Assembly (NCBI GenBank): GCA_965178125.1
Contig: OZ237746.1
Location: 620,001-684,000, forward strand
DNA: 64,000 nucleotides
Direction of reading: 5' to 3'
Source: Bilabrum cf. latius
Lineage: Eukaryota
Shown: positions 1-64,000 of the stretch, one piece after another
Layout: every line of letters starts with the position of its first letter
Position numbering within the stretch: position 1 is the first letter of the stretch
Translations under genes and position numbers: made by a program
Notes under the pieces: generated by a model
What the model saw: the letters and a program-made list of their open reading frames with translations, nothing else
Databases searched by the model: none
What the model was told of the DNA's origin: nothing

Positions 1-1742
1 TCCATCGCGTCCACGATGTAGGTGTAGTACCCCGAGTCGCCCTCTGGCCGCCCCATCACCTCTGCGCTGGCCAGGCTCAAGTCATGGGCATACCTCACCG
101 CCAGAAGGTCGGGGTTGAATCCGGTGGCTGCTGACACCGGGGCCGAGTTAGAGCCCAGCTGGCCTGCGGAACCCGTCTGAGTCAGTGACCGGGTCACGTT
201 GGTGATGCCGTTCACGGTCTGACCCAGCAGACGGACGACCGCGGTGAATCCACCGGTGGGCATCCACTGCAGTGCCATGCACCCTTCCTCCACCGCGCTC
301 CCTGCCACATCCTCCACCCCGTCCCACAGACCCGTCCCCTGCACCTCCATGCTCCCACGGGTCACCACCGACATGAAGCCGAACCCCTTGATGTCACCAG
401 AACCACTCTGTCTTGTTCTCTCGTACTAACCAGAGCCTGAGTCAAGCCCCGACCAGTCAAAGGAGGCTCCGATGGCAGCGCCGCACACCGCCACTCGCCC
501 ACCTTGCCCCATCGTCGACACGCCCACCGCAGCGTACGAGGGCATCATCGACGGAAGACCGGAACTCGGCGACAGGTGCAGCACTTGCTCGATGGTGGGT
601 GGGGACGAGGTCCCCCCAGGGACTCGGAATCGCAGGAGCGCCCCCTGCGCCGCGTCCGATGGCCTCCCGCTGGCGGCCTGCCCCAGGCTCCTCAGCAGCA
701 CGTCGTTCCCGTCGCTGTCCTGGCCCAGGGTCGCGTTGTGTTCCCCGTCCATCGAAGCTGAGTACCTGACCATCAGATACAGGTCGGTGCCGTCTTCCGC
801 CGCGGCCATGCTCATGTACTCGATGCTGAGATCTGCTGCAGTGCTGCCATAGGTGGCAGCGTCCGCTTCGTTGATGGTCACGAAGCCAAGGGGAAGCCCG
901 TTGCTCAGGTTGTATGCCACGATGGAAACGCTGGGCTGTTCTAGCTTAGGCACGGCCGCGCCCGTGACTTCCGTCGGGAGGTTGCTCCCATCTGCAGAGG
1001 TGAAATCAGAGTTGTAGATGTCTAGGGCCTCGTCAGGACCCCCGTGAGTTGTGCATGCCAGGGCCAGCACGCCTGCCCCGGGCATCGCGGCAGCACCCGG
1101 GCACCTGGCCTGTTCTACTGCGGTGTCTGTGGCGGGCCCGATGGTCGCATATGCCAAGGAGCCGTCCAGTGCGTTCACGCCAATTATCATGGTGGCGATT
1201 CCCTGCAGTGTGCTGGGGGTAAGGCTGATGGAGGACTGCCCGCCCGCCACGGTGGGAGGCGTCGTGCCGGCTTCCCAAGTGGTCGCGGTCAAATCGACGG
1301 ACGCCGCGCCGCCCACTTCCACCCTGAACTCGAGCGTCGCTACGACGAGGCCATGTGCTTTGTCTTGAACGAGCGACTTTGGGGCGATGCCGGAGATATC
1401 ACCGGAGGGCGACAGCAAGCCAGTCACACCTTTCAACGCACCAGTGTCGGGGTCCAGATACAGCAGCCGTGCAACAGTTTCGGTGTTTCCTGGCGCGATC
1501 TCTAGAAGTGTTCCATCTGAAGATTCAATTTCAATGGGTGTGGACGTGCCTTCGGTCGATGTTCCGACCAGCACAACCACATGGTCTTGCGCCCTTACGA
1601 TGCCGCCAACGCGGTCGCGCTCTGTGCCAGTACGATCGTTTGGGTACGCCACCGTCCGGTTCCAAGCAAATCCAGATGGGGACGTGCCTGTTGGCCCGGC
1701 CAATGCGCACCCTGCCAGGATTGCAGCCAGCAGGACAATCAT
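1..1742 (-). CDS. Secreted or surface protein of unknown function; 3' end runs off the window
   Basis: ATG at 1742 starts a signal-peptide-like MIVLLAAILAGCALA. The track ORF 426-1793 stops at TAG (426-428), but the frame continues without TAA/TGA to base 1 with protein-like sequence (YERTRQSGSGDIKGFGFMSVV...). Confidence 0.75.
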
Positions 1743-1999
1743 GGAAACAGCCGTTCTTGTCGAGGTAGATAGCTTCACAGGTCGCGGTATCACTCGCTCT
1801 AAATGTTGTGGCAGCGCGCCTCGAATAATACACCAAATATTATGGAGCTCTTCCTGCTATTTCTGGGGTACTGCACCTTCCGCCGTGGCACCTGCAAAGG
1901 GAAACGTCGCTGTGCGACCGCGGTGCAAGTGGTCGCAAGATACTCGGAATCCAGCCGTTCGGCTGCAGCCCGCAGCTACATAAATCGTGCTCCGTTCCC

Positions 2000-4900
2000 A
2001 TGCAATTTACAGGTCTTGACACGACGGTCTTAGATTTACTGCATGAGCCCACTCTGGCCAAGCCAGCGCTGCCTCCGTCGGACGTAGTGCGGTGCTCGAC
2101 GGTCGGAAGCCTCCGCCTACGACCCCGGCTACAAGCAAATCCCACAGGACATGAAAGCAAAATCGAGTTCTCAAAATCGTCTACAGTACACGTGGTATAG
2201 GGCTTTTTGGATTCATAGTGGGCTGATGCTCAGCGTAGCATCGCGCCGGGCGTATCCCGGGTTCTCGATGGGACGACTCGGTGGCTACCTTCCCCCGATT
2301 CGTGGCAGGCATGCGGCGGTGTCGTGCTCCGTCAAGCAATTGTGCTATCGGTGTGCCTAGATGAGCTCTCCCGCAGAGCCAGTGCGGGCCGCGCACAGGC
2401 CATGGAGGCACCTGCTCCGAAACCGCGCACGATCACGTCCACCCTGAAGCGAGCAAGCACTGGTGCTGGCAGCTCCAAACGATCGACGCACCCCGGGGAG
2501 ATTGTTGGACTGGACAGAACAGCGAGGCTGCTGGCGCGCACTGCCCGCAGCCTCTCTTCCCGCTGCAGGCTCCTGTTCTCGCAGATGAGCCTGTCTCTCG
2601 CGGCCGCCACCGTCGATCTCGCCTCGATTCGGGAATCCGCGGAGACGAGTGCGAGGCAGGCGGGAGGTCTGAAACGGCTGCTGCAGCAATCGGAGTATTC
2701 GCGGCACGCGGCCGAGCATCAGCTGTCCCAGGGAGCCAGGGACGTGGAGGAAGGCAAGGAGGACGCTGAGAAGTGGAGGCGGTTTCAGCATGTGACGAGT
2801 GCGTGGATGGAGAGGGTCCGACGGGGTGACGAGTGCCTGCAGCGGATCCAGCGGGCGTGGCGGGCGGCTGTGCTGCGGCGAAGGCTGGGCGCGCTGGCCG
2901 CGGCAGACGAGGTGATGGCCCTCCGTGTGGCGGTGGCGGCGAGGCGGGAGCGGGCTGCGTGCCGAGTCCAGCGGTTTCTCAGGCGCAGGGTCTCAGCCTG
3001 GTCTGACGCGGTACGGGGATTTCGGATCGCCGTGCGGGCACTGCAGAGGAAGAGCAGGCAGCTGGTGGCCGAGCGAGACGCGGCAGTGGCCCGGCAGCGG
3101 CTGTGGCAGGGGGCTCACCTGGAGACGCTTCGTCTGGCCAGGGCGGGGATCGACGCGTTGAGGTCACGGGCGGCGAGGCAGGACCTTGCGCTGCAGGGGG
3201 TGCAGCGGGCCATGAGGGGCGGGCTGGAGAGGCAGGCCGAGTGGGACCAGGGCTCGGTGGATGGGGAGGGGGGCGTGGACAGTCAGGGAACAAGCACGCC
3301 AAGGAGCAAGCAATCGTGGGGGACTGCCGCGTCACCGCGGTCTGGTAGCGCGGTGACACCGAGGGGAATTCCCCTGAGCCCCACAGCGGGGTCATACGCG
3401 GGGCCTGGGACACCTCGAGGCGCCAACAGCAGCCCGCGCGGTGACACAGAGGACACGGGTTCCAACTCGTTCGGTGATATTGCGGGGGATGATACATTTC
3501 CTAGCACTGGCACTGGCACTGGCACTGGCACTGGCACTGGCACTGGCACTGGCGCAGGTGAAACCAAGGGCGGCCCCAGGACTCCTTCCAGCCCCTCAAG
3601 TCAGGGAAGGAGCGCGCCGGGCAAGGGATCCAATGGACGAAGCAGGGCCAAGGGTGGCGCCAGGTCGAAGCGGAGGAGCGTGCGGGGCGGATCCACCGGC
3701 GGATTGGCGCAACAGGCCGCGGCAGTGCGTGAAGCGCAGGGCAGGGCCCAGCTGGCCGAGAAAGCCTCAGCCAGGATCCGAGCCATCAACGGGCGGCTGG
3801 CGGCCCAGGTCCGGGTGGTCAAACAGGAGCGCAGGCAGCTCTAGTCACAGGTGGATGCGGAGCTGAGAGTGTACTATGGGCGCGACGGGAGGCGCGATGG
3901 GCCCAGGGAGGCCCCTGCCCGAGCAGCGGAGGGGGGGGATCGTGGCGAGGGGGAGGGCAAGGCGGAAGGGGGCGGTGAAGCAGGAGGAGGAGGACGTGGG
4001 GCCTCGCTGGACCCCGCGGCGATCTCTGCCCGGCTGGCTGATGCGATCGCAGGGGAAGAGAAGGCGAGGCGGGCTGCATCTGCCCGCTTTGAGCAGGAGG
4101 TGCTGATGCACGATGAGGCACTCGGGGGGGCTGGGAAGGGGACCATGGGGTCGCAGAGCCTGCCGGATGGGGGTGATATGCGCGATGCCGAGCTGAAGCA
4201 GGAGCTGCATGCCGCCGTGGAGAGGGCGGCGAGGAGGGGAGACCCTCAGGATCCCACGCTGGTGCAGGCAGTGGCCCGATCGGTGGCCCGCAGAGAGGCG
4301 CTCGCTGATGACGCCCGGTCTCCTGCTGACCTGAGGACGGACGGAGGTAACAGAGGCAGGCTGATGCAGCTAAGGGCTGAGCGCAAGCTGAGAGACCTCC
4401 GGACGGGAGAGGCGGGCCAAGGCTCGGGGAGGGAACATGGACGCGGTGCCATGCCAGCGCCCCCCACGGCCGTGCCGGGGTCCGATTCATTCCTGGAAGG
4501 CGACAGCCAAAATCACCCCGAGGGGATTTCCCCTGGCTCACCCCTCGGCGGGGGCAAGCGGGGCAAGGCTAGGGCCAAGGGGGCGACCAAGTCCAAGTCA
4601 AAGACCCCACGCGGGGGATCCAAGACCCCCAGGGGCTCCAGATCACCGCGCGGCAACGCGTCGCCCAGAGGCAAGCAGCCCTTCCGGCCCAAGCCGCCCA
4701 CGAGGCCCACCGAGTTCCGGTTTAGCAGGAACAGCCCGCGGCAGCGGCGAGGCACCAAGCCAGCCGCAAGTGACAGCGAGGCTGCGGCAGCCACAAGCGG
4801 CATTTCAGAGGGTCACGGTGCAGTTCAACTAGGCGTATCAGACTCCGAGCAACTGGAGGGTTACGGTGATGACGCAGCCACTGGTGTCTCTGCGGAGGGC

Positions 4901-6451
4901 AAGGGGCGGCCCCACCGCGCAGACTCGTTCGCTGCAGCAGAGGCCCTGATGGGTCTGGACGGTGCCTCGATCGAGGGGACGGAGGCACTGGCGTTCTTGG
5001 GAGGAGTCAGGGGATCTCCCGCTCCAGGGGGACTGCCCAGGGAACAAGAAAATTCGATACCTAAGCCCAGCCTCCTGGTCAGGAAGCAGGAGACTGCCAG
5101 TAGCCCGGTCAGCGCTGATGGCGACAGGGGTGGCCCGCCTCCGCCCGTGCAAGTGCGCGGGCTCTCACCCTCCACCACACCAGCACCCACATCCACACTC
5201 ACGGCGTCACCCACGCAAGGGCGTGCAGGGCGCGGCACAGGCGCTGAGGCTGCTGGGTCCCGTCCTGGATCCAGCGCAGGGGTTGCGATTGCATCGCCGC
5301 TGGGGGGCGGTTCGGTGCGGAGACGGACGGCCAGGCTGACTCCTGGCAGTGGGGGAGGGCTGGGGGGCTGGTCGCCTGTCGCTGGCCCGCCCCGTACCCC
5401 TGTCCGGCCTGGCACCGATGGACCAGAGCAGCGCGCACTCCACGATCTTGCGGGCGTTGGTATGGGTGTGGGGGGCAGCAAGGAACACGCGAGCAGGACA
5501 CTTGGCCACAGCAATGCCGGGCTCACCAATGACGATGGCAATGCCGAGTCCCCGTCCGCTGCTCCGCCACTTGCTGCTGCACTTGGGCCTGTTGGTGCTG
5601 CGCTATAGAAACCAGCACCTGTCCGGGGCACAGACAAGGTGGCCCGAGAACAGGCCGGATCACGCGGCGGGCATGGGCCACTCGTCATGCGGCAGAGGAG
5701 CGCTTCGATGTCAGGCGCCATCAGCAGGGGCTCAGGCGGTGGGCAGATCGGAGGGATCGTGCCAGGCAAGGCCCGTGAATTCGAGTCTCTGGTGGGCCAG
5801 GGAAGGACGTACGGCCAATTAGGGGGCATGGACTAGAATCGGGGACTTGATTTGTTCCCTGGTGTGTCCTCCACCCCGTACACCGGTGGACCGCCGCTGC
5901 GAGTGACACCGCTAGGAAGCAGGACACTCCGGGGCCCATCTGAGGGACAGTCGCGTGATCAAGTACCAGTCGCCAGTCGGGATGAGGCTGCATGTGGCAG
6001 TGCTTCGTCGGCTGGGCTAGAGCCGGGCCCGGGGCCAGAGCCGACGGATGCGGATCGTGACCCGGGAGCCGCAGTCGACTCGGACAACCCGATGCTTCAG
6101 CTGGGCTACACGCATGGTCTGCACCCCGACACACTGAGGGCAAGCCAGCAGACCGGGATAGGGGAGCTGCGGCTGGGCCGGACCTCACGGGGAACCGAGC
6201 CAGTCAGGGGGCCGAACCCCGCGGTGGCGTGGGCGCATCAGCAACAGGACGGGGTTGGGAGAAGCAGCGGGCAAGGTGCGGGGCTGGGCGGGAGGCACCA
6301 CCGTGCAGTGCACCGGGTGAGGGCACGTCCAAGTTCGGCGGTCCCGCGGGGCCGAGTGGGGCTCTCCGGGGTTGTGGTGGGTGCCTCTGCCGGGCGCCAG
6401 AGGAACGCGAGGACGGGGCCGGTGGCTGATCCTGGGTTCCTCGAGGCGTGA
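2000..6451 (+). CDS. IQ-motif / coiled-coil, low-complexity protein (~1483 aa with TAG=Gln)
   Basis: Same-frame track ORFs 2000-2200, 2324-3844, 3851-5608, 5639-5836 and 5852-6451 are separated only by TAG (2198, 2216, 3842, 5606, 5834) and end at TGA. IQ-like segments: LQRIQRAWRAAVLRRRL, ACRVQRFLRRRV, VRALQRKSRQL. Confidence 0.7.
3504..3553 (+). repeat. (GGCACT)n hexamer microsatellite encoding a Thr-Gly run
   Basis: Directly visible tandem hexamer inside the CDS. Confidence 0.9.
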
Positions 6452-6526: not shown

Positions 6527-8230
6527 TTATCTCTGTTTACTCATGCCACCATGTGCCTAGCTGTAGCACGCCAAAGGGGGTGCTCCCTCCCTCACCGCCC
6601 GCTTGTATTTCTCATAGGCCTGCTTCGACAGCTCGATGATCTCCTCCCCTGACAGCTATTCAAGCCCATCCCCTATCCCATGAGGCCCCGCGACAGGCCC
6701 TTCGACCACCCCGGCCATGCGAGCTGCCTGCAGGTTCATCCTGGCCAGCAGCACCTGCCTGTCCATGGAGTTCTCCTTCTGCCAAGCACTCAGGCGGCCA
6801 GTGTTCAGCGGCTGATTCACCTGGGACAACCGCAGCGCATTAAAAGTATTGATGTTCGACGGTGTATCCAGCTGCATCCTCTCCATCTCCTCTTTCGAAA
6901 TGACCTGCTGCCGCTGTCCGAGGTTGTCGGCTTTCAGCGGCTTGGCGGTCATGTTGATCATGACGGGGTCGTACTCAAGAGGCAGCCCCCTGGCCTGCAG
7001 GGCATCCGTGAGCCCACGCATGATCTCCTCGGGTCTCGTGACCACATCCTCGTAGAATACCACATGTGCTGGCAGCAGCGAAGCAATGGACTCCTTGGTC
7101 TGCAAGAGCTGCACCCGATTGAGCAGCCGCCTGCCCTTCTCGCCCTTCCGCTTGAACTCGTTCCAGTACGACCGACCGGTCGCCGCACATTTCTCTGCTT
7201 CGGTCAGTGCGGCGGCAGGGCTCGGAAGAGGCAGCGCCTGCTGCGATCCCCCCTCTTCCTGGGCGTCCTTTCCCTTGTCCTCCTCTCCTCCTGCTTCCTT
7301 GTCATCGTCAATCACAGCGTCATCCTCATCCTCCTCGATACTCTCGTGGGGATTTTCTGCACCCTATCGAGCCATTGCCGCTGGGGAGGGTTTCGGCAGC
7401 TCCCGCATCCCATACGCCAGCAGCCTCGCCCGCAACCCCTCGTCCTTGACAGCCATGAGACCCTGCTCCCGCAGCATGTACCACGCCCAACGGTAGTGAT
7501 CGCGGAGGGCACATGGGCTGCACTTGAATGCAGCGTCCAGCTCGCTCACCTCGAACTCTCGCTTGATGACCGACCACACGGAATCGAGGGGGTCCCTCAC
7601 CTGATAGACCAGGGCGGCGACGTCCCAGCGCACCTGCGCTTCGACGTACGTCTCGTTGTCGAACGTCTTGATCGGGCTTTCGTTGGTACGCTCAAGGACA
7701 TTCAAGAAGCCCTAGAAGTCATTTCCCGTCTTCTTCGCGACAATCAGAGGGAGGGGCTTGGGCTTCTTGGGCTTCCGGCGCAGCACAATCTTCTTCAGGC
7801 TGTTGCCGACCTTCCAGGAGCATCCCTGGTCTCGGGAGGCCTTCGTCCCGGGACCTAGCCACTTACATGGAACTAGACCGTGCCTGAGAACGGGGCCGTC
7901 CAGCGTGTGCTCAACAGTCCCGGATCCGGCAGCGAGCATGTGTCGCATCAGCGTAGTGCCCGAATGGTGGAAGCCACAAACAAGTAGAATACTGCCATAC
8001 ATGTGCTTCTTGGGCGATTGTATATATGACACATCAACAGATGGACGCATTCCACCCCGAACCAGCCTGGGACCATTGTTAGTTTGCACCACAAAACCTG
8101 GCACGCGTGCTACCTTGTCCCCTTCGGCCTATGAGGGTGAAACAAATACCACTGAGTACAAAATGACCGCAAGCAGGCATACAGATACTACGACAATGAG
8201 TCTTTTAGTATCGAAACACGACCGATTCAT
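6527..8230 (-). CDS. Type II membrane (Golgi-type) sulfotransferase, ~567 aa
   Basis: N-terminal TM segment LIVVVSVCLLAVILYSVVFV, 5'-PSB-like LLVCGFHHSGTTLMRHML and 3'-PB-like YQVRDPLDSVWS. Four track ORFs plus a tail are joined by in-frame TAGs at 8129, 7712, 7364, 6656 and 6557; ends at TAA 6527-6529. Confidence 0.8.
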
Positions 8231-9013
8231 CGAAAAGTGGGAATACAGTAGTAAAAAGCGCTGCTGGTTCACCAGGGTGCAGCCCACTGTGAGTGCCCGA
8301 CACCCCGGGGCCCGGCGGGCCATGCTACTCTCCGAAGCTACCGCTGTGTTGTCGGACAGGCGGCCGACTGCTGTAGGCCTGCATGGGAGGCCACCTTCGT
8401 CAATGTCAGGAGTGCACCAAGCTCTGTCCCGGGAGGGTCAGTGAGCTCCTCACCTTTCATGCCAAACGGCTCACTGCCGCTGAGTAGACTTGTTCGTGAT
8501 GAACCGGTACGCCGCATGGTAGGCGCACCTCAGTGTGGGCTTGGCCCTGCCTTCGAAGCTGACAAACGCAATACACACAGTGCCTGTGGTCTCGGGCGAG
8601 GCACCGACCGTCGCCAAGACGAGAGTGCCTTCGCTCTTCGCATGCCACGAAAGTGACGTGGTCTGTCCCAGGGTAGGTGGGGCGCTGTGGCTCCACATGG
8701 CCGCCGGCATCGTCTGAATGACGAGCCCGTGCCAGTGCTGAAAACTTCGCTGTGTCTGCGGCTAGCACAGTCCCGGACTCCAGCAGGGTTGCTACGCCCA
8801 GTCACTGCGGTACGTTCCTTGGTACTACTGGTGTATTTCTTGTCGCAACCCTGGACGGTCCGTACGCTTGGTCGATTAGTAACGTGCACTTGCATGGGGT
8901 TTTCTAGTTCCGGATTTCTTTTTATGATTGACCGAAAGTAAGATTCGGGTGCTTCCACCCAAAAATTGCGACTGAAGCGTCGCATATTTGTTGAATTGCG
9001 GCAGACTGCTAGC

Positions 9014-10510
9014 ATGCTACTCGTGTCGCTGGCTCGATGTGCAGTTGTGTGTGTGGCATTCTAGGTTTCCTTTGCAACACCTCAATGGAGACAGGCACTT
9101 GAGTACCACCTGCCGTCCATTGGCGGAACACGCAACCATCCTAGCAACAATTTCGATTTACTCAGCAACTCAACATATCCGGTAGATACTAAGTGGGATC
9201 ATGTGGATGCTCCCCCATCCAGGTTTGGTTGCCTCGGTTTTGGTCCAAAGTCAGAGGTTCACACGGTCCGTGATGGGAAGAAAGACGATAACAGCTGGGC
9301 AGTGGCCAACGTTATATTTACCGGTGGGAAATTCTTTCTAGGAGGGGCAGACGTGACCCCGAGAGTCGCTAGGGTCTCGATTACGAACCAGCCAAGCCTG
9401 AATGTCTCCAAATGCAGCGATGATAATACGCTGCGCGAGACGTGGTACGTCACCGAGTTTTAGACCTCGCATAATATGTATCATGCTCATAACAACAACA
9501 TCTTGCCCCTCTATAGGGCCCTGGCCATGATGAACGATACGAACAACCTAGAGGCGGCTTGGATCGCAGACCTGCTGCAAGCGGCTCGTGAAGACGGGCA
9601 GCAGGGCGCGTCACCAGATGCAGGGAGCTAGTAGAGAGTAGCCCGGGAACTGCAGCCCTAGAAGAAGCCCCTCCCTGCTGGGGGGGCCTGTGGCAGGGAA
9701 CACAAGGAGGGGGACGGGGACCTGGTCACTCTCGTTGCGGGACCGTACACCTAGAAGGGCAAGGACCTCGTTGCGCCCATCGTGAAGAGCATTGTCCCAA
9801 GGATATTCACGACCTTGGCAGCGGCAAACGAGTTCGCCCATACGAAAGGCGGTGGCACGCTGTGCCTCGAGCGCGTGTTCTTCGGGCGCATGCCGCGAGT
9901 CTTCACCCCGTACTTCCCGCTCACCATGGGGTACGCCACGGAGCAGACTTTCCCTAGGTATCGGTTGAGCTAGCTGACCCGTTTGGGCATGCGAGACATC
10001 ATCCATCGCACCCCCAAGTGGCCCCCCAGGGCCGTGTTCATCCTGAGGCAGGGCACGAGGACCATGGCGAAGGAGTCCAAGGAGCTCCTGCAGCAGTACT
10101 TGGGGTACCATGGCGTGTCCCTTGAGCTCATCAACCCAGGGGCGCTGAGTCTTCCCGAGCAGATGAAAATGGCGGCCAACACTGATATTCTCATAGGCGT
10201 GCACGGGGCCGGTTTAGCGCTGGTCACCTACATGAAGCCGGGGAGCGTTGCGCTTCAAATTCGCCCCTGCAATCTCAACTACTGGGAAGACGCCCTGTTC
10301 ACCAAGTTCGCCATCCTGAACGACGTGGACATGCTGGGCTACCAGGAGCAGTGCAAGGGGAAGGAGGGCTGGAACAAGAGGGACGTGGACTTTAGGAACG
10401 CGAAGAAGCAGACAGACCATCATATCGCCACCCTCGTGTCTAAGCTGCTACTCACCTACGTCAAGAGGCACAAGGTGCGCGACGCGGCACAGTGGGAGGA
10501 ATCGCACTGA
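9014..10510 (+). CDS. Glycosyltransferase family 61 (EOGT/DUF563-like), ~498 aa
   Basis: Hydrophobic N-terminus MLLVSLARCAVVCVAF, then HNMYH...ILPLY and DILIGVHGAGL motifs typical of GT61. Seven in-frame TAGs (9062, 9461, 9629, 9632, 9659, 9752, 9971); ends at TGA. Confidence 0.8.
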
Positions 10511-14203: not shown

Positions 14204-14384
14204 GGCTGCACTCGACATTGCACGCTATATCTAGTCTAGCAGTTAATATTGCCAGTTGCCGCGCCGGCGCCGAGTGGTCCGTGTGTGATGATCCCAGCCC
14301 TTCGGCCGAAAATTTGCAAGAACGTACAATAGATCAGACAGCTGTGACCTACCTTTCATCAATTATTCGCACTAGACTTCGGAA

Positions 14385-18088: not shown

Positions 18089-18125
<37 letters not shown>

Positions 18126-34712: not shown

Positions 34713-34745
<33 letters not shown>

Positions 34746-37816: not shown

Positions 37817-37974
37817 AACTATTGTCACTGTGCCATTACGAGCTTGCAAACAGTGTCGCACTCAAGCTGCTCATGAATTGCTTTTGAAAACGCTCCGGGT
37901 CCAAACACTTTGTGCGTACAGGCAATGCGGTTAGCATCTTGAGAGCTGCAGGGATTCATTCCACATATGTAACA

Positions 37975-52303: not shown

Positions 52304-52643
52304 GGCCGATGCAGCAAACGTAGTACACGTTGAATTTTAAGTCTCTTCTTGAATAATATAGGCCCGTAAGCGTTGACAGGAAGCTACCTCAAAGCGATGA
52401 CAATTTGTTGTATTTTTTCAGAATGCAACCAACGGTATTGCTGCTATTATTGCGCCCAAAGGCATCGACGTGTAGCAATACTGTACTCAAATACCGCCGA
52501 TTTTTTTTTGCCCGAAGGCAAGGAAAATGATCACAATCACACGTCATGAACCATGATCCAATTTTCGATCGGAGCAACTGCCTTTCCAAAATACTGACAA
52601 CTTGTAGAACGAAGCAAGCAACAATCAGACCCATGAGAACCCA

Positions 52644-55600
52644 ATGATCATGAATTATGCCGCTCCCAACTTGCCTGGCCGCGCTGTATATGCCGTGCAA
52701 GCTGCTTGTGTACTCATGATAGCTGCACGGTCGGCCGAAGTTGCAATGGAGCATGAGCCTATACAGGATGCAACAGCCCCAGCCTTGGCAGATATATATA
52801 GTCAATATACTTTTAATGTGGAGTTCAATCGCAAAGAAAGAGATAAGGCTGGACTCGGACGTGTCAAACAATTGGATACATTGGGTAGCTCATTTTGCAA
52901 CATGGTGGAGCTGTCGAACCCCCCACATCATCATATTACATACATAGTATCCATGAGTCCCTTAGATTCGCTGACTTTGCATTTCCGGACGGCTGCCAGC
53001 AGCCAGCCTCTTGATGAACCGGGAGCAGTAGGGTGGAAGCAGGAGTGCTGCTTGCGTGCAGCCCGCAAGGTATCGGTAGCAGTAAATTGGGCACGGCAGC
53101 CGCCACAGAATGCAGCGGCACCCAAGCAGGTCCCACTGCATATCGCACGTGCGGCAAAGTGCTATGCCGCACTAGCAAAATGCATTAAACCGAGCACCCA
53201 GGATGCCGAGGCAGGCCTCGATTCCATCGGGAAGGCGTGGCTCTTGGGCAAACTCGACGAGCCACTGCACAGCAATAATTGCATTGCAATGCACCCACAC
53301 GCAGGCTGGGACCAGCCGCGAATGCTAGAGGCGAAGGCAGAGGTCGTGATCGGCACGATGCGGACACGGCGACACCTCCCCATTGACCCCTCCGTGGGGT
53401 CGCACTCCATCGGGGGCATCCAGGCGGCCACGGGGGAAGTGGGCCTGCAGCTGTCGTGCGGGCCCATGGTAGGTCCACTCCCAGGGAACAAGGTCGCCTG
53501 CTGTTCCTCCACGAGGACCGTCAGCGTGCTCCCCGCGATCGCCCCAGACATCGGCATGTTCAGCCTCCTGCACGAGGACCGACTGTTCCCTGGTGTAGCC
53601 CGGTCAGGCCTCCGTGTGTTCCCTAGTCAAGACCGGCCAGGTTTTCGTCTCGATACAATGGATGTGAAAGAGCCCGGGCAAGGGTCAATGGATGTGAAAG
53701 AGCCCGGGCAAGGGTCAATGGATGTGAAAGAGCCCGGGCAAGGGTCAATGGATGTGAAAGAGCCCGGGCAAGGGTCAATGGATGTGAAAGAGCCCGGGCA
53801 AGGGTCAATGGATGTGAAAGAGCCCGGGCAAGGGTCAATGGATGTGAAAGAGCCCGGGCAAGGGTCAATGGATGTGAAAGAGCCTGGGAAAGGGTCAATG
53901 GATGTGAAAGAGCCTGGGAAAGGGTCGAAACTGGGGCTCGGGCCCTCGCTTGCAAGCAGGTCTCTAGGCGGGGCCCTGGCTCGATCAGCCGCTAGGGAAT
54001 CCCTGGCCTACGATGCCAGTGGTGGAGGTGGAGGTGGCGGTGCAGGTGGTAACAAGGTCAAGGGTAGGGCAGATGGTGCGCAAGACGAGCACCGTAGGAC
54101 AAACTAGGGTGCATCGATCCCTGCTACATCCGATACCGCAGGCCGCAAGCTGGTGTGCTTCCTCGGCACGGCGGACTCCTTCGATGGCATCAAGGCGGGC
54201 TGGCTGCTCCAGGCAGGAAGGATACGGGAGCTGGCCGGGGCCAGGGCCAGACTGGTGCATCGCACTGCAGCGACGGAACACAGAAGCGCGCAGGCAGTAG
54301 GGCATAGTGCCCATAGTGGCAATCCACCCGTGGACCACCGGCAGCACAGCGGCATGGGCATGGGCATAGGCTGGAAGGGTGTGCATCCCGTCCTGGCCAA
54401 GCAGCTGCAGGACGCTGGATGGGAGGCGATCGGGAGCCCTGCTGGGCCGGCCCTGCACCGCGAGGGCCTGCCCTAGGAGAGCGGGCTGTGGCCCTTGGAC
54501 GGGGGAACCCTGGCTCTGCTCGCAAGGGACGTGGTGCGGCGTATGAAAATGCAGGGGCACTGCGATGGGCAGGAGGCCTTGGGGGCGGAGGCTGCCCTGG
54601 CGGCTTGGACGGCTGTATGCGAGAGTAGGCGGGGGGAGGCGCCATGGGGGGATGCGTTGTAGCGTGCACTTTCTGGTGGTACTGACCAGGCCGTGGCAGC
54701 CGGAGCGCCGAGCACAGCCGCGGTCAGGTCGCAGATCGAGACTGCAGCTCCCCAGACGATCAGCTGGTCGGAGCAAGAACTGGACGCGCTGTATGTAGCG
54801 TGCAATTCTGGCATAGAACGATCTGCTGTGACCCACGACAAACAGCGAGCGGGTATCAAAGACAGCATGCAAACGAAACTACAGGTGCTGCTGCGGTCGC
54901 TTGGTCCAGGCGGGGAGGCGCCTGCCCGATTGCTCGAGTGGGGGGCGGAGCAGGGGCATCGCGCGTTGGATGGGCTCTGCGGGTGTGATGTGGTGCAGTT
55001 TGCCATCACAAGCAGCCCTGCCGACGTTGTGGTACCAGAGGCTGCGCGCGCTGCGGGTGCTCGCGCGCTCATCGCCGTGAACACAGGGATCAACAGGCAG
55101 CATGTGGGTGCCAGGCTGGCGGGCGTGACGGTGCTGGCGGGACTCAGCGACCATGCCAGAGATGTGCTGGCGATGGATGCGCTAATCCACGGGTGGAGCG
55201 TCTGTAGGGGGTCAATCCATGGGAAGGGTGTGGTCGCACCGCACCTTGGGCTTGTACCCCTGGAGGGAACCCTGCATGCCCCCATGGTGGGGTAGTCATC
55301 CGAGGCCATGCAGGCCGTGCCCGAGACAATCGTCAAAGAGGCTGGCCCATGCATTGTACCCGGTGATGATGCACAGCGCATACCTGCTGGCGAGCAAGAT
55401 GCTTATAGTGGATCCGAAGGTGGAACCCAAATGCCGCTGCAGATTCCCGTGGTGACCACCCGTCTCGCTGGTGACTAGGATCTATTCCGCCCCGGGGATC
55501 CAAGGAAACTCGACGAAGGCTCTATCACTGTCGGGTACGTGGGTCGGTTGTCGCCGGAAAAGGGTATTCTCTTGCTACTCGAGGCGGTTGGCATCATGCG

Positions 55601-56960
55601 CGGTAGTGCAGTGCATGTTCGCGACTGGGAGCCCGCCGGCCTGGCACTGGGAGTCGCGCTTGCGTCCTGCGTAAATCCCGACAGTGGGCGCCTGGCACAG
55701 CTAGATATTCACCAGTGGCGAGACACACAGCCTGTACATGCTGCTCAGCGGGTGAGGGTACGAATTGACCGTCCTAATGCCTCGCTCGAGCCAAACGGGG
55801 GCGCGAATCGTGACAGCTCCGGCCGGCTGCAGACCATTGCAGCTGTGATTGGAACGGCTGCATGCTGGGATATCGTATCTGCATGGCGGGATGCTGTGCC
55901 AGTGTTTGACGACGCGGGGCGCAGTGAGGGTGTGACGAGTGATAGGGGGCGGCAGGCGCTCCTTGCCGAAGGAGTCGCCGACGCGCTCCGGGGCTTCCTT
56001 CTATTGGCGAATAGCAAGGGCAAGGATATGGAGGATGGCTGGGACGAGGGTAAGGAAGAAGCAAAGGCCCGAGATGCAATGGATGCAGGCCTAACCATGG
56101 GCCCCCCTGCCTTGCCCCTTGATGGAAGGCAGCGTCGCATGCTGTGTAGCGCGGTGCGGTGGCTCCTTCCGGCCCTTGGCTGCAACGATAGCGACGTCAG
56201 CACCAGCAAGTCTACGTATGTCGAGCGGGAGACGGGCACGAGCGCCCACGAATATGCGTTGTTCCCGCGAACCATTCGACTGGCACTGCCACCTACCACC
56301 CAACGAATTCGACTCCGGATCATTGGATCCGGGGAACAAGAGGGCCTGATCAGGCGGGCCACCGCAGAGATGGGTCTCGGTGACGTGGTGGATTTAGCGG
56401 GCGCAAAGTATGGTGCTGACCTGGCCAAAGAGGTTGCCCAGCTCGATTTGCTGGTGCTGCCATCCGTGCGGGAAGAATCGGAAACGTTCGGGATGGTGCT
56501 TGCGGAGGCAGCGCTGGCTGGGGTGCCCCGAGTGGCGATGGGTTTGGGCGGGCCTCTGGATGCCGTGGACCATGGGACGGGAGGGGGGTTGCTCGTACCT
56601 TTCGTGTCGCCGCTGCTGCTGGCACTGCAGGTGCAGGCGGCAGCGGGTCATGGTACGCTTGACTCTGGAGCGATTCGGTCCCATGCTCTTGCAAGGGGGC
56701 TTGGCAGTCGGGACATGGGTGCTCGGTTTGCGGCATTTGTCCTTTGTCTTGCGCGATGTCCGCCCATGGGCTCCGAGGGTCGAGATGGGGTGTATGGGCT
56801 GCTTCAATTGAGGGTCGGTACTGAGGCATGGGATAGCAAGTTGAAACCCAGCGAAGCTCGGTTTTTGAGTGGCCTTGCAACGAGAGGGTGCACTTCGGCT
56901 CGTGCGATTGCCTGCGCGGGGCGTTGCGCGTGGTCGGATGTTGGTACTGAGAGCTACTGA
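52644..56960 (+). CDS. Large GT4 (GT-B fold) glycosyltransferase with a hydrophobic N-terminus, ~1438 aa
   Basis: ITVGYVGRLSPEKGILLLLEA, LRIIGSG and LDLLVLPSVREESETFGMVLAEA (EX7E). Four track ORFs share one frame, joined by TAGs at 54105, 54474, 54660, 55293 and 55476; ends at TGA. Confidence 0.75.
53658..53927 (+). repeat. 30-bp coding minisatellite, 9 units (MDVKEPGQGS x7, MDVKEPGKGS x2)
   Basis: atggatgtgaaagagcccgggcaagggtca repeated head-to-tail with no spacers. Confidence 0.95.
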
Positions 56961-57444: not shown

Positions 57445-57556
57445 CCTTCATATTTTACACGCATTGACCTGAACTTATGTATGATTAGCGTTAAGAAAGA
57501 CTAAAGCTAGCCTCAGGTAGTGCTGAAATCAGTGCAGCCACATCGCAATAGCGGCA

Positions 57557-60500
57557 ATGCTGCTCTTGGTGATGATGGCCCCCCTATTGTTTGCCGTTGG
57601 GTTGTCCGACGGCAGTGGCGTCCATGTAAACTACACGCGTTTGTATGCGTTGGACGGTCGAGAGCTGCTAGCTGAAGATGACAGCCGGTTCAAGAACTGG
57701 CCTGGGACGTTTGCAGTAATCCGGCCTCCTTGGGCTGGAATCGGGGGCAACGGCATGGCCCCATTCGGCAAAATATTTCGAGATGAATTTTCGCTCATTG
57801 TTGAAGACCCAGAGCGGCTGGATGGTGTCTCTACCCACTAGAACAGCGCATGCGTGGCGATGGCACGTGCGGGCGCACCACACCGCTTGGATGAGCATCT
57901 GAGGGGCAACCGCCGTGGACCACGCGAATATTTAAGTTCAGACCGTCTCGTTCGGCCATGGATGCGGGCAGAGTGGTACATTGGCGATTGCAAGACGTCC
58001 CCGACCGGTGCGAGCAATGAAACCGCGTTCTCCTACGACGGACAACCGCACGCGCTCGCAGACCTCCTGCGAAATCCGTACAATAGCATGTTTTTGTCCC
58101 ATCTTGGATTTGGCGGAGGAGATATCCGGGGCTTCACGCCCGCTCCGATCACCACAATCGCGACCCCTTGTGACGTTGGCTCGGCGGGGGGCAGCTCCAC
58201 GCCGGGCTCCGTGGACGACCTGCTCCTCTTCACGGGGGAACAAGGGCAAGGGGTCATGCTCGAGCTGGGGCGGGGAGCACTCGTGGGCGAAGCATCAGTA
58301 GGTACGGATCAGACCAGGGACCTTGGCCCTGCCATTGGGGTGCACAAGCTGTCGAGGGGGGCGCCCAGCAGCGGGGTAATAGAGGGGCTCGCATTCGCCG
58401 CGGCGAGCGCCGGCGATGTTTCGATGGATGGTCTACCCGACATGGTAGTGGCTTCGTATCGCGGAGAATATGGTGCGGTCGATCCTGTTGTCGTGCTGAG
58501 CCGTGTCTGGAGACCGGTGAATAGGGAGGCAAAAACTCAGGTGCTCTGGCACGTTGAGTCTGATGATGACGCAGTGCAGCATGCTAGAGGGGGGCTGGCA
58601 TGGCTCTGTGACGGTACAGTCAGCACGATCGTGCCAACACAAGTGGCTGCAGGAGCACCCATCGGCGGTGTTCCCCAGGAGTCGCTGCTCGACGCATCCG
58701 TGATGGTGCTGGGCTCCCCATCGGCCCAGAGCGGCAGGGGCGGGTTCTCCCTGTTCTGGATATCCAAAGAACTAGAGCCTAAGATACGAGCATTTGTGCC
58801 CGTGCAGCCCAGTGCAGGCACGCTGGCAGGTGTGACGATCCCATTGAATGCCAAGCTGGGCCAGCACGTTGCATCTGGTGACGTGGACGGTGACGGGGTG
58901 AGGGACCTGATCAGCTCGAGCGATGGGCACGGGCTGCTGGTGCTGCTCATGGGGGCTGGGGGGTGGGCGCCAGGGGGCGGGCGTGTTCCTGGTGCTTTCA
59001 TTCGGGAGGCCGTGTGGGTGGGCGGGATAGAGCCAGCGGCTGGGTGCAGCTTGGGGGCGGGGATCCACCCGCTACCTGCCCTGCCCAACTACGCATCCGG
59101 GGTGCGACTGGCTATCGGCAGGCCGTGCCAGAGCTCGAGCGATCACTGGGGCTCGATCGAGGTGGCTGTGCTGGAGGTAAATCACGGGATGGGCGAGCCA
59201 GAGGAGGGGTTCAGCTGGAGCCAGATGCAGCTGTCTGGGCTGGTGCCCGGTGAGTGGGAGCTGCCCGACTCGGCAGCCGATCTGAATGATGCGGATGCGG
59301 ACGAGTTCAGGTACGTATACTTCCGGTCTGGCCTGCCCGTGCACGCGGGACAAGACGTATCAAAGCCGCAGTACGGCAGCCGGGATGCTTCCGTTCCCGG
59401 GCATGAAGCCGTCACAGTGCAAGGCCCGTCCCTGCCCCGTCCTCTGCTTCTTGGGACCCTGGAGCCCGTGGCCGTGCTAAGGAGGGAGCCGGACTGGGCG
59501 CTCCCCGCATCAAATGCGCAGTGGAAGTCATTTGGCGGACAGCGGCAGGCGGACCCCGTGGGCACTTCGTGGAGCTCAGTGAGGCCAGACCGACCGCCCG
59601 TGTGCTGCGTATCGCCGCAGACACCCAAGGCCGTCATCCAGAACACGCACGAGCAGCTTGCGTTGTAGCTCCGGGTCCCACACCCGAGTGACCGACCCCG
59701 GCTGTCAGTGCCCCCTGTGGTGGAGCTGTGCGTGGTGCCGACTGCGCTGATCGCCGCGCACTCAGGACAGAGGATTGTGGACAGCAACAGCGGGGAGAGA
59801 ATCGATGCAGGGGATACGAGAGCGTTGGCCGGGGCGTGCTTTGCACCGCAATGGAATGCATCGAGCGGTGTGTCTGGGAGCATGCTGGAAGGCGTGGCCT
59901 TGCAGCCGTGGGTGTCCGCGGAGAGTGCTGGCTGGGCGGTAGCTCTGTACAACGACACGGTGAACTAGCCAATGCCCGTTTCTAAAATTGCGTCTGTGAA
60001 CGTTCCGAACACGGCGCAGGCTGAGTACATGGCCCGCGTTGTGAGCGCTAGATGGCCCGCCTTCGTGTCAGCGGATCGGCTGGCGGCCGCTGAGGACACC
60101 CTGCAGCGGTGTAGCACCGACCCCGAGGCGCCTTGTTCCCCCGGCGTGCTGCCCCCCTCCGAGCTACCCCTGTCGGTGGCGACTCCTGCCCTGCCCACCG
60201 GATTGCTGTCCGTGCGCGTGTCCTACCCTACAACCAACGGGAGTGCTCCTGGGCGTGGGGGTGACTGGGTGACGGCAGAGTGCAGGGGCTGTGCCTGGGT
60301 GGGCGGCTCTCAGTCCTTCCCCGCTCGGCTGATCGGGGGACTGGGGCGTGGTGCGGAGGACGAGGGGGGAAGCAGGGGGAAGGACGGGGCCTGGATCTCA
60401 ACGGGTGAATTCGGGCGAGCGAAGAGCTCAGATGCCCACACCGGATTTGGTGCTTCCACAGCTTGGTTCGACGTGGATGGAGATGGGCAGCTGGATGCCA

Positions 60501-63500
60501 TCGTGGGCCAGAGGATGGAGCAAAGGTAGCTTAACACGCGTCACACGGATACAGACGGTGTGGTGTACGTCTTCTTCCTGGATTGGCGCAATCGGATGGA
60601 AGGAAGGCAAGGCTTCGAATGGAGAGACTCGGGTGTGAGGGTAAGGCAGGACATTTACGGGTACGGAGGAGGGCTGGGGTACGCTGCATATAGGATCCGT
60701 CGGATGCTGGCTGCGAATGAAGACGACCAGCAGGAAGGGCAGGGGTGGAACGATGGATGGTCCCTCGAATTTGGATCGTCTGTGTCTGTGGCCATGGGCT
60801 GTGACGCGAATTCAGTCAGCCACGCAAGCTTTGGCGTGGGCAAGGTAGTGTTCTCTGTGGGCGTGCTAGGTCACAGCGATAGTCGAGGCGGGGTGTTTCG
60901 ATTTGCTGTGGACCGGAGCCCCACCTCTCCACAGGGCTCGCAGTTTCCTACCGTGGGCCACCCCTACTTCGGAACGATGCGCGTCTACTACTTTGGATCC
61001 ACCACCACCGGCATTCCGAGCGGGATGTTGAGGCGATTCCAAAACCCCGCACTGACGCTCATCAGCAATAACGATATCTTCGGGCATGGTGTTGCCAACG
61101 TGGATTTCGACGGGGACGGATGCCAGGAGGGCACCTTGTTGGGGTCGTTCCGGCACGACAGCGACGCTGGAGCTATTCTAGCCTTTGCTACTCGTGCAAA
61201 CGGCGACATAGCTCCGGGGTACAAGCTGGCTACTGGGGATGAGCTAGAGTCGTGGATATCGCAGGTCGAAGGCATTGCTGCTTCTTCTAACGCCCGCAGT
61301 GTCATTGCAGACGTGCAGCATTTCGGGATGTCCATGGCCGCGCTGGGAGACGTGGACGGTGACGGCCTCACTGACGTGCTGACCCCTTCGTATTCAGTCA
61401 AGGACAACATCGTTCCCTGGGTGGCTTCTTCCCAATCGCACTACGCTGGGCAAGGGGGGCTGTTGCTTCTGTCGTACGACAGCGGCCTGTTAATCCAACA
61501 GGCTCAGTACATCGGACCCAAAGTAGGTGGAGACTTGATGAACGGCATGTGGCCGTCGTCTTTCATCCCATACATGCGGTACGATTCATTCACGTCAATT
61601 TCGGCGGTCGATCTGGATGGCGATGGGCTGATGGAAGTGGCAGTCGGTATGGAGCGATACAACGTGCCATTTGACAACAAGAGGTCGCCGGACGAGTACG
61701 AAACAGATGTCAGTGACCGCAACTACCAAGGTGCGGTCATGATCTTTACGATGGGGAGCAGAGACAAGTGGCCAGCAGCTCGCCAGGCTGTGCAGAACAG
61801 GCTTAACTCTACTTCTGCAGACTCGATGGACTGGCCCTTGGTAGTGCCCGGTACCCTCAGGCTGATTCCTACCCCCGTCCACCTCAGGGGGCAGGGGCAT
61901 TTTGGCAAGGCTGTGGCGCTCGCAACAAGCCCGTTCGTGGATCCCAGCCTTTCGCCCACTCCCATGCTGCTGGTGGGGGGCCCCAGCCTGACGAATCATG
62001 ATCCGCAGTACGGTCAGACCGCCACCAGCGAGATCTTTGGGGCCGCGTTCGTGCTCGCACTCCCTGCCGTGTCACGTTGGCCGGATGGACTGTACAACGC
62101 GTCCGACGGACTGTACAGTTCGGCAATTTCCAATCAGGTCGGGCTGACCCTGCCAGCAGGGAGGCAGGCTGTGGATCGGCTGCAATCGCTGTCGGGAACA
62201 TCTGGGATCGTAAGGGACCCTGCAGTCATGCAGCCACTTGCCCTGCTTCAGTCGAATCACCGTGCGGATCTGACTAGCATGGTCACTGCCTCGTAGTCAC
62301 CCGGGTCGTCACACCCACAGTATTCTCTCAGGACTGCCAGGTCGGTGTTTGCTCGACCGCGCAGCAGCGGTGTTGCAGATCCGGTGGCACAGCGCTTAGC
62401 ATCTAGCAGCGAGTGCGACGGGGGCTCGTGGCAGACCTTGGCAGAACGCGACCCTACTGGCTACAACTTCTACACTGGCCTGGCCTCCGCAACCGCTCTG
62501 GCCAATGGAACTGTACTGCTGACAGGGGGTGACAAGCGTCTGGGTGGAACCAGTTATTATGGCAACCTACTTCGGAGTGACGACTACGGTAGCTCTTTCT
62601 ATGTGATGGGCGTCAACAACATTGGCGTAGATGCTGTTGACACCCACAGAAGCATCATTGCAGTGCCAGCGGAAAAAACCGAGCGCCATAATAGCTAGAA
62701 TGTAACTATGCGCAACCGTGACACAATGGCCTCGGATCAGACCGTCTTGATCCTTGGGGAGGGTACAATCCAGTCGATTGCTAAGTTCTATTCCTACATG
62801 GGGGGATTACAAGGACAATTCACGCAGACGGCAATGAATAACGTATACAAGCTTAATCATTTTGCGGTTGCCACGACGTGGCACGGTCCGGCGACGGCAC
62901 CGTCGTTATATATGATGGGTGGATAGCAGCAAGGCGCGCCTGGCGACAGAGTGTACAAGAGTACGAACGGGGGTTTCTCCTGGAGCTAGCAGCAGGCTCG
63001 GCTACCCGGCAGGTGCAGGAAGAACGGAGGAGTAGGCACCTACGGGGGGATCCCAGTAGTGACGGGGTGCCTCAACGAGTTTTCCAGCGAATACGGCGAC
63101 TCTGACTCCTCCGCCACTGCTGCCTCCTTTGATAACGGCGTGTCGTGGACGGTCACCAGCCGGACGGTACACGCGCACACGAGGAGCTACTGGCCTCCGA
63201 GGAGGGTGACACGTTTAGTGGCGTTGCCAGACGACAGCATACTCCTGTGCGGAGGGAAAGACGAAGATTCAGGAAACAGTATCGGCGGTGGCAATGGAAT
63301 CTCTGGAGAGGATCTATTCGGCGACTGCTGGCGCTCTTGGGACCACGGCTTGCACTGGGAGAGGCAGCTGGCTCCCAACGGTGGATTCGACGTGTTTCCC
63401 GGCGGCAAGCCGCTGGCTGAGCACTCCATGGTCCATTTAGGGGGCGGAAGGGTGATTGCCATCGGCGGACGCACGTCATTCACGTCCAGTATCTACATTG

Positions 63501-64000
63501 GCGTGATCGGCGCGACGTTCTGCCTTCAGAGGCCGGCTCAGTCGCACGCTCTTCCTGAAGGCAAACACGGACCCTCATCAGATTTCGATCCCTGGCCCAT
63601 GCTGTGCCCCAGGGGCGCCAAGCGAGGCACCGCGGGATGCATGCTGCCCCTGCGAGTATCTAGTCAAAGCTAGGACGATCCTGTGAAGCTGCTCATTGAG
63701 TATTCCTCCTCACAGGCCTCTTTGCTGTCACACTGGGCCATCAACGAGGGCGGCTATGTGAGAGCACTCGTCACGCATCCGGACTCGATGTCCAATGACA
63801 CTGTCGTGCAGGTATCCGTTGAGCCTGCGGATCCGCATGATGGAGGCTTCACCAGCATGAGGAATCTGCACGGGGGCCACCCCTTGCACTTGTTCAAGGA
63901 TGTGCCCGAGACGCCGTCTGTCGATGCCCTGAATGCTGGCATGCAGGTGGACGGTCTTCCGGCTGCCAGCGGCAACGTGTACGGCCCCTCGATTGCGCAG
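57557..64000 (+). CDS. Very large secreted/surface protein with FG-GAP (integrin-alpha/VCBS-like) repeats followed by BNR/Asp-box and kelch-like repeats; 3' end runs off the window
   Basis: Signal peptide MLLLVMMAPLLFAVGLS; repeated GDVDGDG..D, DFDGDG and DLDGDG motifs; RSDDYGSSF, KSTNGGFSW, SFDNGVSW and RSWDHGLHW Asp-boxes. Eight same-frame track ORFs are joined by TAGs at 57839, 59666, 59966, 60527, 62294, 62696, 62924, 62987 and 63671. Confidence 0.8.

Follow-up and report, generated by a model that had tools for sequence, protein, structure and literature searches.

Is UAG still a terminator in the nuclear genes of this organism, or has it become a codon for an amino acid, and for which one? 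The question is raised by a stretch of 64,000 nucleotides from Bilabrum cf. latius (assembly GCA_965178125.1, contig OZ237746.1, positions 620,001 to 684,000 of the forward strand), which we call the window and number from its first letter. Changes of the nuclear genetic code are rare, and splits of UAG from UAA are rarer still. The G+C content of the 64-kb window is 63.5% (0.57-0.74 per 4 kb), and Pfam matches show eukaryotic nuclear genes packed densely on both strands; several encode low-complexity proteins. A first reading made from the letters alone (the sequence-only reading) had proposed that UAG is a sense codon here, most likely for glutamine (Gln), while UAA and UGA remain stops. UAG is almost certainly a sense codon: on this point the proposal is upheld by the frame statistics, by spliced contigs that keep TAG and by homology on either side of TAG. 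It is likely that UAG works as a normal sense codon in nuclear genes, most probably for Gln, with UAA and UGA as the only terminators.

The 18 stop-to-stop frames of the window (19,045 codons, approximately 57 of the 64 kb) contain 85 in-frame TAG codons, no TGA and no TAA. In the +1 and +2 frames of the same 18 stretches, TAG occurs 135 and 119 times, TGA 306 and 307 times, and TAA 36 and 59 times. Under the standard code, the large genes of the window are broken into pieces. Reading through TAG joins these into single frames at 26719-36153 (3144 amino acids, 13 TAG), 16778-24133 (2451 amino acids), 57527-64000 (2158 amino acids, open at the window end), 1829-6451 (1540 amino acids), 52557-56960 (1467 amino acids) and 10763-14242 (1159 amino acids). 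When TAA was read as Gln or TGA as Trp as controls, the pieces stayed apart (for example, 2219-3844 and 3845-5608, 27532-28920, 30643-32763, and 57842-59668 and 60530-62296), and the growth seen with TGA as Trp was mostly in off-frame and antisense open reading frames (ORFs). The sequence-only reading had counted approximately 84 in-frame TAGs and described merged frames of up to 9.2 kb free of internal TAA or TGA. Our recount of the raw stop-to-stop frames agrees at 85, and the merging was reproduced, with neither control able to achieve it.

Approximately 15 TAGs of the raw frames sit 5' of the first ATG. After trimming, 68 TAGs remain in 17 models (17,877 codons); adding four in the MGCG gene, two in epsilon-COP and one in the small gene at 50287-50721 gives a corrected total of 75 in 20 models. 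Some of the TAGs counted by the sequence-only reading (approximately 84 in 20 models) fall in introns or leaders. If TAG encodes Gln, it makes up 68 of the 756 Gln codons of the 17 trimmed models (approximately 9%), beside 565 CAG and 123 CAA. It is scarcer in conserved genes, with one in Rpt1 and none in the main Nup155 exon.

The surroundings of the TAG codons show some regularities. Of 68 in-frame TAGs, 30 are preceded by C, and the following base is G in 25, A in 18, C in 16 and T in 9, where the shares among first codon bases are 0.44 for G, 0.20 for A, 0.24 for C and 0.13 for T. Gly is unusually frequent at position -1. In 10 of the 18 frames, the upstream bounding stop is TAA, though off-frame TGA is approximately six times commoner than TAA; this excess probably reflects AT-richer leaders and promoters.

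A change of code is only one way to explain TAGs in frame. Consensus errors (CAG recorded as TAG), missed introns, pseudogenes or RNA editing could produce them with the standard code intact. We examined this alternative with the public Logan contigs of four runs from four studies (X1, X5, X6 and X8), which were aligned to positions 25200-45199. The features of this region that the argument needs are the following.

25334..26548, plus strand: Trm8/METTL1-type tRNA m7G methyltransferase; TAG at 25436-25438 and 26492-26494; TGA stop; Pfam Methyltransf_4, 1.3e-41.
26950..36153, plus strand: giant low-complexity gene of 9.2 kb with a B56-like C-terminus; 13 in-frame TAG.
37888..39612, plus strand: NSUN-type RNA m5C methyltransferase; four TAG (38026, 38458, 38800, 39493); TGA stop.
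39706..40570, minus strand: MGCG gene; 247 codons when spliced; intron 40218-40338; TAA stop.
40731..40874, plus strand: exon 1 of Rpt1 (26S proteasome subunit 7); 48 codons from the ATG; contigs of X5 and X6 join 40874 to 41039.
40875..41038, plus strand: Rpt1 intron; 164 nucleotides, GT..AG; contains TAGs 40883 and 40919; spliced in X5 and X6.
41039..42226, plus strand: exon 2 of Rpt1; TAG 41042-41044 is its second codon; TGA stop at 42224-42226.

Three GT..AG joints without the intron were found in the contigs: 40874>41039 (X5 and X6, one contig each), 40217>40339 (X5 and X6, on the minus strand) and 26713>26919 (X5). The contigs of X1 and X8 are unspliced at all three places. Because X5 and X6 (two studies) lack the introns that X1 and X8 keep, they were taken to derive from spliced RNA. 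The last joint removes an intron from the 5' leader of the giant gene (approximately 26714-26918). The second removes the 121-nucleotide intron of the MGCG gene, on the two sides of which the frame differs; the spliced coding sequence runs 40570->39708, with in-frame TAGs at 40546, 40531, 40492 and 40029. The model 39706-40626 given by the sequence-only reading was therefore wrong in its frame 5' of the intron. In the case of Rpt1, that reading had listed three TAGs, of which 41042 is in frame and the other two (40883 and 40919) are intronic by the X5 and X6 contigs. The splice makes TAG 41042 codon 50, in frame between the conserved motifs K-A-Y-G and G-P-Y-S.

Of the 26 in-frame TAG sites of 25200-45199, 17 fall within the listed pieces of X5 and X6, with identical letters at all 17: 11 of the 13 in the giant gene (X5), all four in the MGCG gene, Rpt1 41042 and Trm8 25436. 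A single spliced X5 contig of 613 nucleotides, with no differences, spans all four TAGs of the 247-codon MGCG ORF, and an X6 contig over 25336-26183 of Trm8 likewise shows none. X1 covers 26 of 26 sites with the same letters, and the listed pieces of X8 cover nine, again with the same letters (the four NSUN TAGs, the four MGCG TAGs and Rpt1 41042). The sole letter difference listed anywhere in the contigs is T>G at 28474. The TAGs are not spliced out and are not edited in the X5 and X6 molecules. The sequence-only reading had suggested looking for TAG in spliced transcripts, and in the contigs without introns it is kept, in frame, at 17 of 26 sites. Identical letters in separate studies argue against a consensus error peculiar to one assembly.

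Some features of this evidence lean toward an unchanged code. Logan contigs drop rare variants and are assembled contigs rather than raw reads, so the read evidence is all of this kind; some TAGs are indeed intronic or in leaders. The run records do not state X5 and X6 to be RNA, the automated guess for X5 is 'probably DNA', and none of the runs carrying the stretch is recorded as RNA. On the other hand, four runs from four studies agree at every TAG that they cover, the spliced contigs retain TAG, and the three introns seen leave the coding TAGs in place. Error or decay would also yield in-frame TAA and TGA, yet the 19,045 codons contain neither. The ORFs of two relatives described below (93% and 71% identity) are broken at the same positions. 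Together with the unbroken homology across TAG, these points make an unchanged code extremely improbable.

The homology was followed in the following further genes.

9014..10510, plus strand: GT61 glycosyltransferase; seven TAG (9062, 9461, 9629, 9632, 9659, 9752, 9971); TGA stop; Pfam GT61, 2.6e-12.
16778..24055, minus strand: 3R-Myb protein; TAG 23788-23786 in Myb repeat 2, further TAGs at 20650 and 20551; Pfam Myb, 1.7e-44.
42461..47965, minus strand: main exon of a Nup155-type nucleoporin; 1,803 codons, no TAG; TGA stop; Pfam Nucleoporin_N, 4.9e-11.
48891..50201, plus strand: epsilon-COP; at least three exons; TAG 48936-48938 in exon 1 and 50148-50150 in the last exon; TGA stop at 50199-50201.

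Homology is continuous over TAG, without a change of frame, in five families (Rpt1, Trm8, Myb, epsilon-COP and GT61). The alignment of Rpt1 (Pfam PRS7_OB, 2.4e-35; AAA, 4.3e-41) to structures in the Protein Data Bank (PDB) runs from residue 21 to the last residue with an E-value of 3e-215, and TAG stands opposite L (8amz) or Q (12bm and others). In Trm8, TAG 25436 lies inside the conserved N-terminal motif P-x-K-R-F-F-R-Q-R-A-H, and the yeast and human enzymes in the PDB align on both sides of it. The PDB alignment of the Myb protein is unbroken over the TAG in repeat 2, and that of epsilon-COP, whose intron positions are predicted from frames and sequence, spans the TAG in exon 1 and the one in the last exon. 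TAG 9461 of the GT61 gene is within a conserved block. Ordinary termination cannot account for 13 TAGs within a single gene, nor for one at codon 50 of a proteasome subunit that is essential. The sequence-only reading had placed TAG in essential genes, and this is so for Rpt1, epsilon-COP and Trm8; it had also named Nup155, the main exon of which has none, with one TAG only in an unverified upstream exon. The Nup155 upstream exons are probably near 48119-48394 and 48456-48764, the latter with the one TAG; a PDB search with the putative piece 48456-48764 gave no match. The look-alikes of the Nup155-type protein in the Atlas are nucleoporins.

If UAG is sense, which codons terminate? The 18 complete genes end in TGA (14) or TAA (four: 6527, 10763, 39706 and 50719), which reproduces the list of stops in the sequence-only reading. 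Rpt1 and epsilon-COP reach their TGA where solved homologues have their C-terminus, in the case of Rpt1 at the last residue. These alignments support UGA as a stop. For UAA, the argument is statistical. If TAA encoded Gln at the CAA:CAG ratio, approximately 15 in-frame TAA would be expected in the 17,877 codons (68 x 123/565), and there are none; frequent TAA at conserved internal positions, which the sequence-only reading had named as a sign against its proposal, is not seen in these frames. When the frames were extended through the four TAA termini or the 10 upstream TAA bounds, the third-position G+C of the extensions was mostly 0.25-0.55; that of most gene frames is 0.65-0.78, with few lower. 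The exceptions are the extension past TAA 6527 (0.73) and the one upstream of 16778-24133 (0.65). The extensions past TAA 6527 and 10763 run toward or into convergent neighbour genes. From the absence in frame and the non-coding composition beyond TAA, we infer that UAA is still a stop.

Two known arrangements were considered and rejected. NCBI table 6, in which UAA and UAG both encode Gln, is used by ciliates, hexamitin diplomonads and dasycladalean algae. Here, the absence of TAA from 17,877 codons against approximately 15 expected, and the failure of TAA as Gln to join any pieces, speak against it. Codes without a dedicated stop (of the Condylostoma, Blastocrithidia or Amoebophrya type) do not agree with zero TGA and zero TAA in frame.

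UAG could also be dual, an amino acid inside genes and a terminator near some transcript ends. Context-dependent termination is known from Condylostoma and, for UAA, from Blastocrithidia. The pattern at three gene ends would suit it and weighs against UAG as a plain sense codon: in the DHHC, sulfotransferase-like and Trm8 genes, the stop taken as the end is preceded by a last TAG at a distance of 3, 10 and 18 codons, respectively (three of the 17 trimmed models). Moreover, the ORF of P0003, the relative at 93% identity, ends at Trm8 TAG 26492. However, TAG is 0.38% of codons, so that chance alone would put one within the final 20 codons of approximately 1.3 of 18 genes, and three is no clear excess. 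No homology-defined C-terminus falls on TAG, those of Rpt1 and epsilon-COP being at TGA, and a standard-code gene caller would be expected to end P0003 at the TAG anyway. We regard a dual UAG as very unlikely, although TAG may occasionally terminate.

Gln is by far the commonest meaning of a reassigned UAG in nuclear codes. To read the meaning here, we examined what homologues carry opposite TAG. The most informative column is Trm8 25436, in which 110 of 120 homologues have a residue (10 are gapped): Q 74, K 25, R 8, and D, H and I one each, with L, V, S, P and T each 0/110. At GT61 9461, the 21 residues are H 4, W 4, Q 2, S 2, E 2, L 1 and other singles; P0137 and P0124, the two nearest homologues that span the site (49% and 34% identity), both have Q. 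The column at GT61 9752 has A, P, Q and W, and that of the last-exon TAG of epsilon-COP has Q, Q and R in PDB chains. A word-index search with GT61 gave two matches only. When the log-odds of eight columns were summed (pseudocount 5; the exon-1 column of epsilon-COP is not among the eight), Q came first with 6.22, followed by K (2.06), R (-0.39), W (-1.22) and L (-3.26). Q stayed first whichever single column was dropped.

Other columns count against Gln. At Rpt1 41042, 76 metagenomic rows show L 31, K 15, V 9, Q 5, A 5, I 3, T 3, R 2, F 2 and S 1; these rows come from 80 loci, of which three were excluded (match not from the first query residue) and one was skipped (upstream part unaligned). 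GT61 9971 is hydrophobic too, with V 16, L 8, I 6, M 3, R 3, Q 1 and others among 44. At GT61 9062, P0123, the relative at 71% identity, has G. In PDB chains, the exon-1 TAG of epsilon-COP faces A in three mammalian proteins, and the Myb TAG faces K in c-Myb, v-Myb and B-Myb. None of the TAG columns that could be aligned is hyperconserved, and few such columns are available in the window. Finally, the proteins of the window were used to train a classifier on neighbour context; for the TAG set, it put S, P and T on top and Q 13th of 20. In 28 of 30 draws of gene-matched true Gln codons, Q was among its first three choices, but on CAA-only sets it placed Q 13th or worse in 4 of 30. Because of the CAA-only control, the classifier was taken as unreliable for rare codons. 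A comparison of internal repeats in which TAG faces another codon gave one chance match only.

These observations give some room to another amino acid, with Lys as the strongest candidate and Leu, Ser and others less likely. Lys is second in the sum (2.06) and is found in Myb, in 25/110 of the Trm8 column and in 15/76 of that of Rpt1. Leu and Val lead at Rpt1 (31 and 9 of 76) and at GT61 9971 (8 and 16 of 44), and the context classifier favours S, P and T. Q, however, is ahead of K by approximately 4 and of L by approximately 9.5 log units and stays first on leaving one column out, the absence of L, V, S, P and T from the Trm8 column stands against each of these, and the context test fails its CAA control. 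Many TAGs sit in Gly/Ser/Pro-rich disordered stretches. Leu is rare in such stretches, so this placement speaks against it and suits a codon that is rare and under weak selection. As a candidate of its own, Leu is not supported (0/110 at Trm8, 1/21 at GT61 9461, sum of -3.26, leading only at Rpt1 with 31/76). An amino acid other than Gln is, on balance, rather unlikely. Gln appears to be the best reading of the eight homologue columns, not a proven one; given that UAG is sense, we hold Gln to be likely as its meaning. The 'most likely Gln' of the sequence-only reading stands to this extent, carried by the eight variable columns and above all by the 74/110 of Trm8, with two hydrophobic columns and a context test that does not favour Q on the other side.

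How would UAG be decoded as Gln? Panek et al. (2017, PMC5304391) argue that, with UAA kept as a stop, no decoder other than a tRNA(CUA) is possible; they also discuss the eRF1 position equivalent to human Leu69. By this argument, anticodon CUA would be required here because UAA remains a stop. Such a tRNA could have arisen most simply by a one-base change from tRNA-Gln(CUG), and eRF1 would have lost efficient recognition of UAG. A tRNA gene search of the 64-kb window found none, and there is no gene for eRF1 within it; both are points against the proposed reading. Rfam families gave no match in the window either.

Does the change extend beyond this one genome? Close relatives of two of the genes exist as ORF fragments in public data. 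P0003 (Logan; 93% identical, Trm8) begins at an internal Met and ends exactly at TAG 26492. P0004 (JGI/ENA; 65-70% identical, Trm8) has the same internal Met start and ends just before CAG 26339 of the window. P0123 (Logan; 71% identical, GT61) has its ORF end exactly at TAG 9461. P0131 and P0137 (JGI/ENA) are fragments of 63-69 amino acids on contigs of up to 2-6.5 kb. A cluster look-up of five fragments of relatives found all of them to be singletons. The fragment ends fit a clade that may share the TAG-as-sense code and would have been mis-called by a standard-code gene caller, and the short GT61 and Trm8 ORFs in environmental data suggest an uncultured clade mis-called in this way. These relatives are known as ORF fragments only, so the stops at their ends are putative.

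A quick Trm8 tree places the window, P0003 and P0004 in one clade (Shimodaira-Hasegawa-like approximate likelihood ratio test, SH-aLRT, 99). This clade is inside a set of nine rows (95), in which a further row is labelled Symbiodinium sp. and another is from EukProt and unidentified. Long branches were flagged, and the tree is a lead rather than a placement. Trm8 scans of genome contigs and viral contigs gave only distant bacterial TrmB or nothing. A metagenome scan with Rpt1 gave 80 loci, the best at 80% identity, and no close relative. Five of these loci (L060, L073, L074, L077 and L078) have in-frame standard stops in the conserved N-terminal block and are presumably ciliates with known variant codes. 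Runs of five studies, filed under five coded organism labels, carry near-identical sequence to the window stretch. A symbiont, a contaminant or a companion in culture may explain this spread, as may labels that are synonyms.

A GC-rich composition and a long multi-gene contig fit poorly with phyllopharyngean macronuclear DNA. The sequence-only reading had judged the genome not ciliate-like, and its 63.5% G+C, multi-gene contig and ordinary GT..AG introns fit this judgment. We lean slightly toward an independent change of UAG to Gln in a GC-rich, intron-poor, non-ciliate protist lineage, the uncultured relatives of which would share the code.

The remaining genes of the window are listed here.

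3..2006, minus strand: secreted-type protein without assigned family; one or two TAG; runs past the window edge.
1829..6451, plus strand: coiled-coil, low-complexity protein; three to five TAG; TGA stop.
6527..8437, minus strand: sulfotransferase-like membrane protein; five in-frame TAG; TAA stop.
10763..14242, minus strand: two-ring AAA ATPase (CDC48/AFG2-like D2); six TAG after the chosen ATG; TAA stop.
14292-15374, plus strand: small low-complexity gene; two TAG after the ATG; TGA stop.
15543-16727, minus strand: small low-complexity gene; two TAG after the ATG; TGA stop.
36290..37861, minus strand: DHHC palmitoyltransferase; two TAG (37630, 36301); TGA stop.
50287-50721, plus strand: small gene; one TAG; TAA stop.
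51104-52336, minus strand: SUMO-like-domain gene; three TAG; TGA stop.
52557..56960, plus strand: GT1-domain protein; 30-nucleotide x 9 coding repeat; five or six TAG; TGA stop.
57527..64000, plus strand: FG-GAP repeat protein; nine TAG; runs past the window end.

All six TAGs of the two-ring AAA ATPase are outside the region that aligns to solved structures, and the structure-aligned region of the NSUN protein, from a search of solved structures, misses its TAG sites. The FG-GAP protein had no match when compared with shorter database proteins. The MGCG protein begins M-G-C-G-A-S, a typical start for N-myristoylation or palmitoylation, and three of its TAGs are in the first 27 codons. The three introns seen are GT..AG and short (164, 121 and approximately 205 nucleotides); each interrupts its gene near the 5' end, in one case within the leader. 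Apart from this, most long genes appear as a single exon. Several small exons in a stretch of lower GC are apparent for epsilon-COP (48.9-50.2 kb) and, at 48.1-48.8 kb, for the 5' part of Nup155. In-frame tandem coding repeats are found at 53656-53926, 14493-14774, 15556-15732, 51408-51499 and 10966-11068; they include a decapeptide of 30 nucleotides x 9 (99% matches), Pro-Ala runs, Gly-Met runs and a 24-nucleotide x 7.4 repeat. The Myb gene and the 9.2-kb giant gene have very long Gly/Ser/Ala-rich tracts.

If the reading of UAG as Gln is true, the organism would provide the first documented UAG-only nuclear code in a GC-rich setting with TGA, not TAA, as the main stop. Such a code would be a poor fit to 'codon capture' accounts in which AT pressure drives the loss of a stop codon, and a further GC-rich, TGA-preferring case would test models of stop loss by mutational pressure and codon capture against those with an ambiguous intermediate. 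Genome and RNA data exist for the organism, which would make it a system for the study of tRNA(CUA) and eRF1. There is also a practical side: annotation under the standard code chops genes at TAG in this genome and in relatives, and P0003, P0123, P0131 and P0137 already look so.

How does this code compare with those already known? Table 6 resembles it in the change from stop to Gln, probably by a derivative of tRNA-Gln, and differs in that TAA is not sense here. Code 15 of crAss-like and other phages (TAG as Gln) is, as far as the excerpted accounts go, the same codon table; these are viruses with bacterial translation, whereas the genes here are nuclear (nucleoporin, coatomer, proteasome) and have spliceosomal introns. 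The UAG-only precedents given by the sequence-only reading (Iotanema and phyllopharyngean ciliates) are borne out by the excerpts of PMC5304391 and of McGowan et al. (2024, PMC11687900). The splits of UAG from UAA named in these excerpts are Iotanema, exLh, one oligohymenophorean and three phyllopharyngean events. A full-text literature search gave no report of a GC-rich UAG-only Gln lineage, which is the sole basis for calling this one undescribed.

UAG encodes Leu, with UAA and UGA as stops, in the rhizarian exLh (PMC5304391) and in an uncultivated TARA phyllopharyngean clade (PMC11687900), according to the same excerpts. The UAG-only change is shared with these; the amino acid is different, and Leu is unsupported here. 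exLh turned up inside the data sets of other organisms (PMC5304391), much as the window stretch is present in runs under five organism labels. In the phyllopharyngean ciliates Hartmannula sinica and Trochilia petrani, UAG alone is changed to Gln, as here, but the stop that they prefer is UAA in the account excerpted (PMC11687900); in the window, it is TGA (14/18). Another close likeness is to Iotanema spirale (Fornicata), in which UAG is Gln and UAA and UGA are stops (PMC5304391): a UAG-only change with Gln inferred in a non-ciliate protist. What is known of Iotanema comes solely from a transcriptome, while the window is a genomic locus with 63.5% G+C and GT..AG introns. The Gln call for the window comes from eight variable columns instead of hyperconserved positions or a phylogeny-based likelihood. 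The Trm8 tree shows no sign of a link to fornicates, and the window groups with environmental sequences and the Symbiodinium-labelled row. Set beside these systems, the window looks like a further UAG-only case, GC-rich and non-ciliate.

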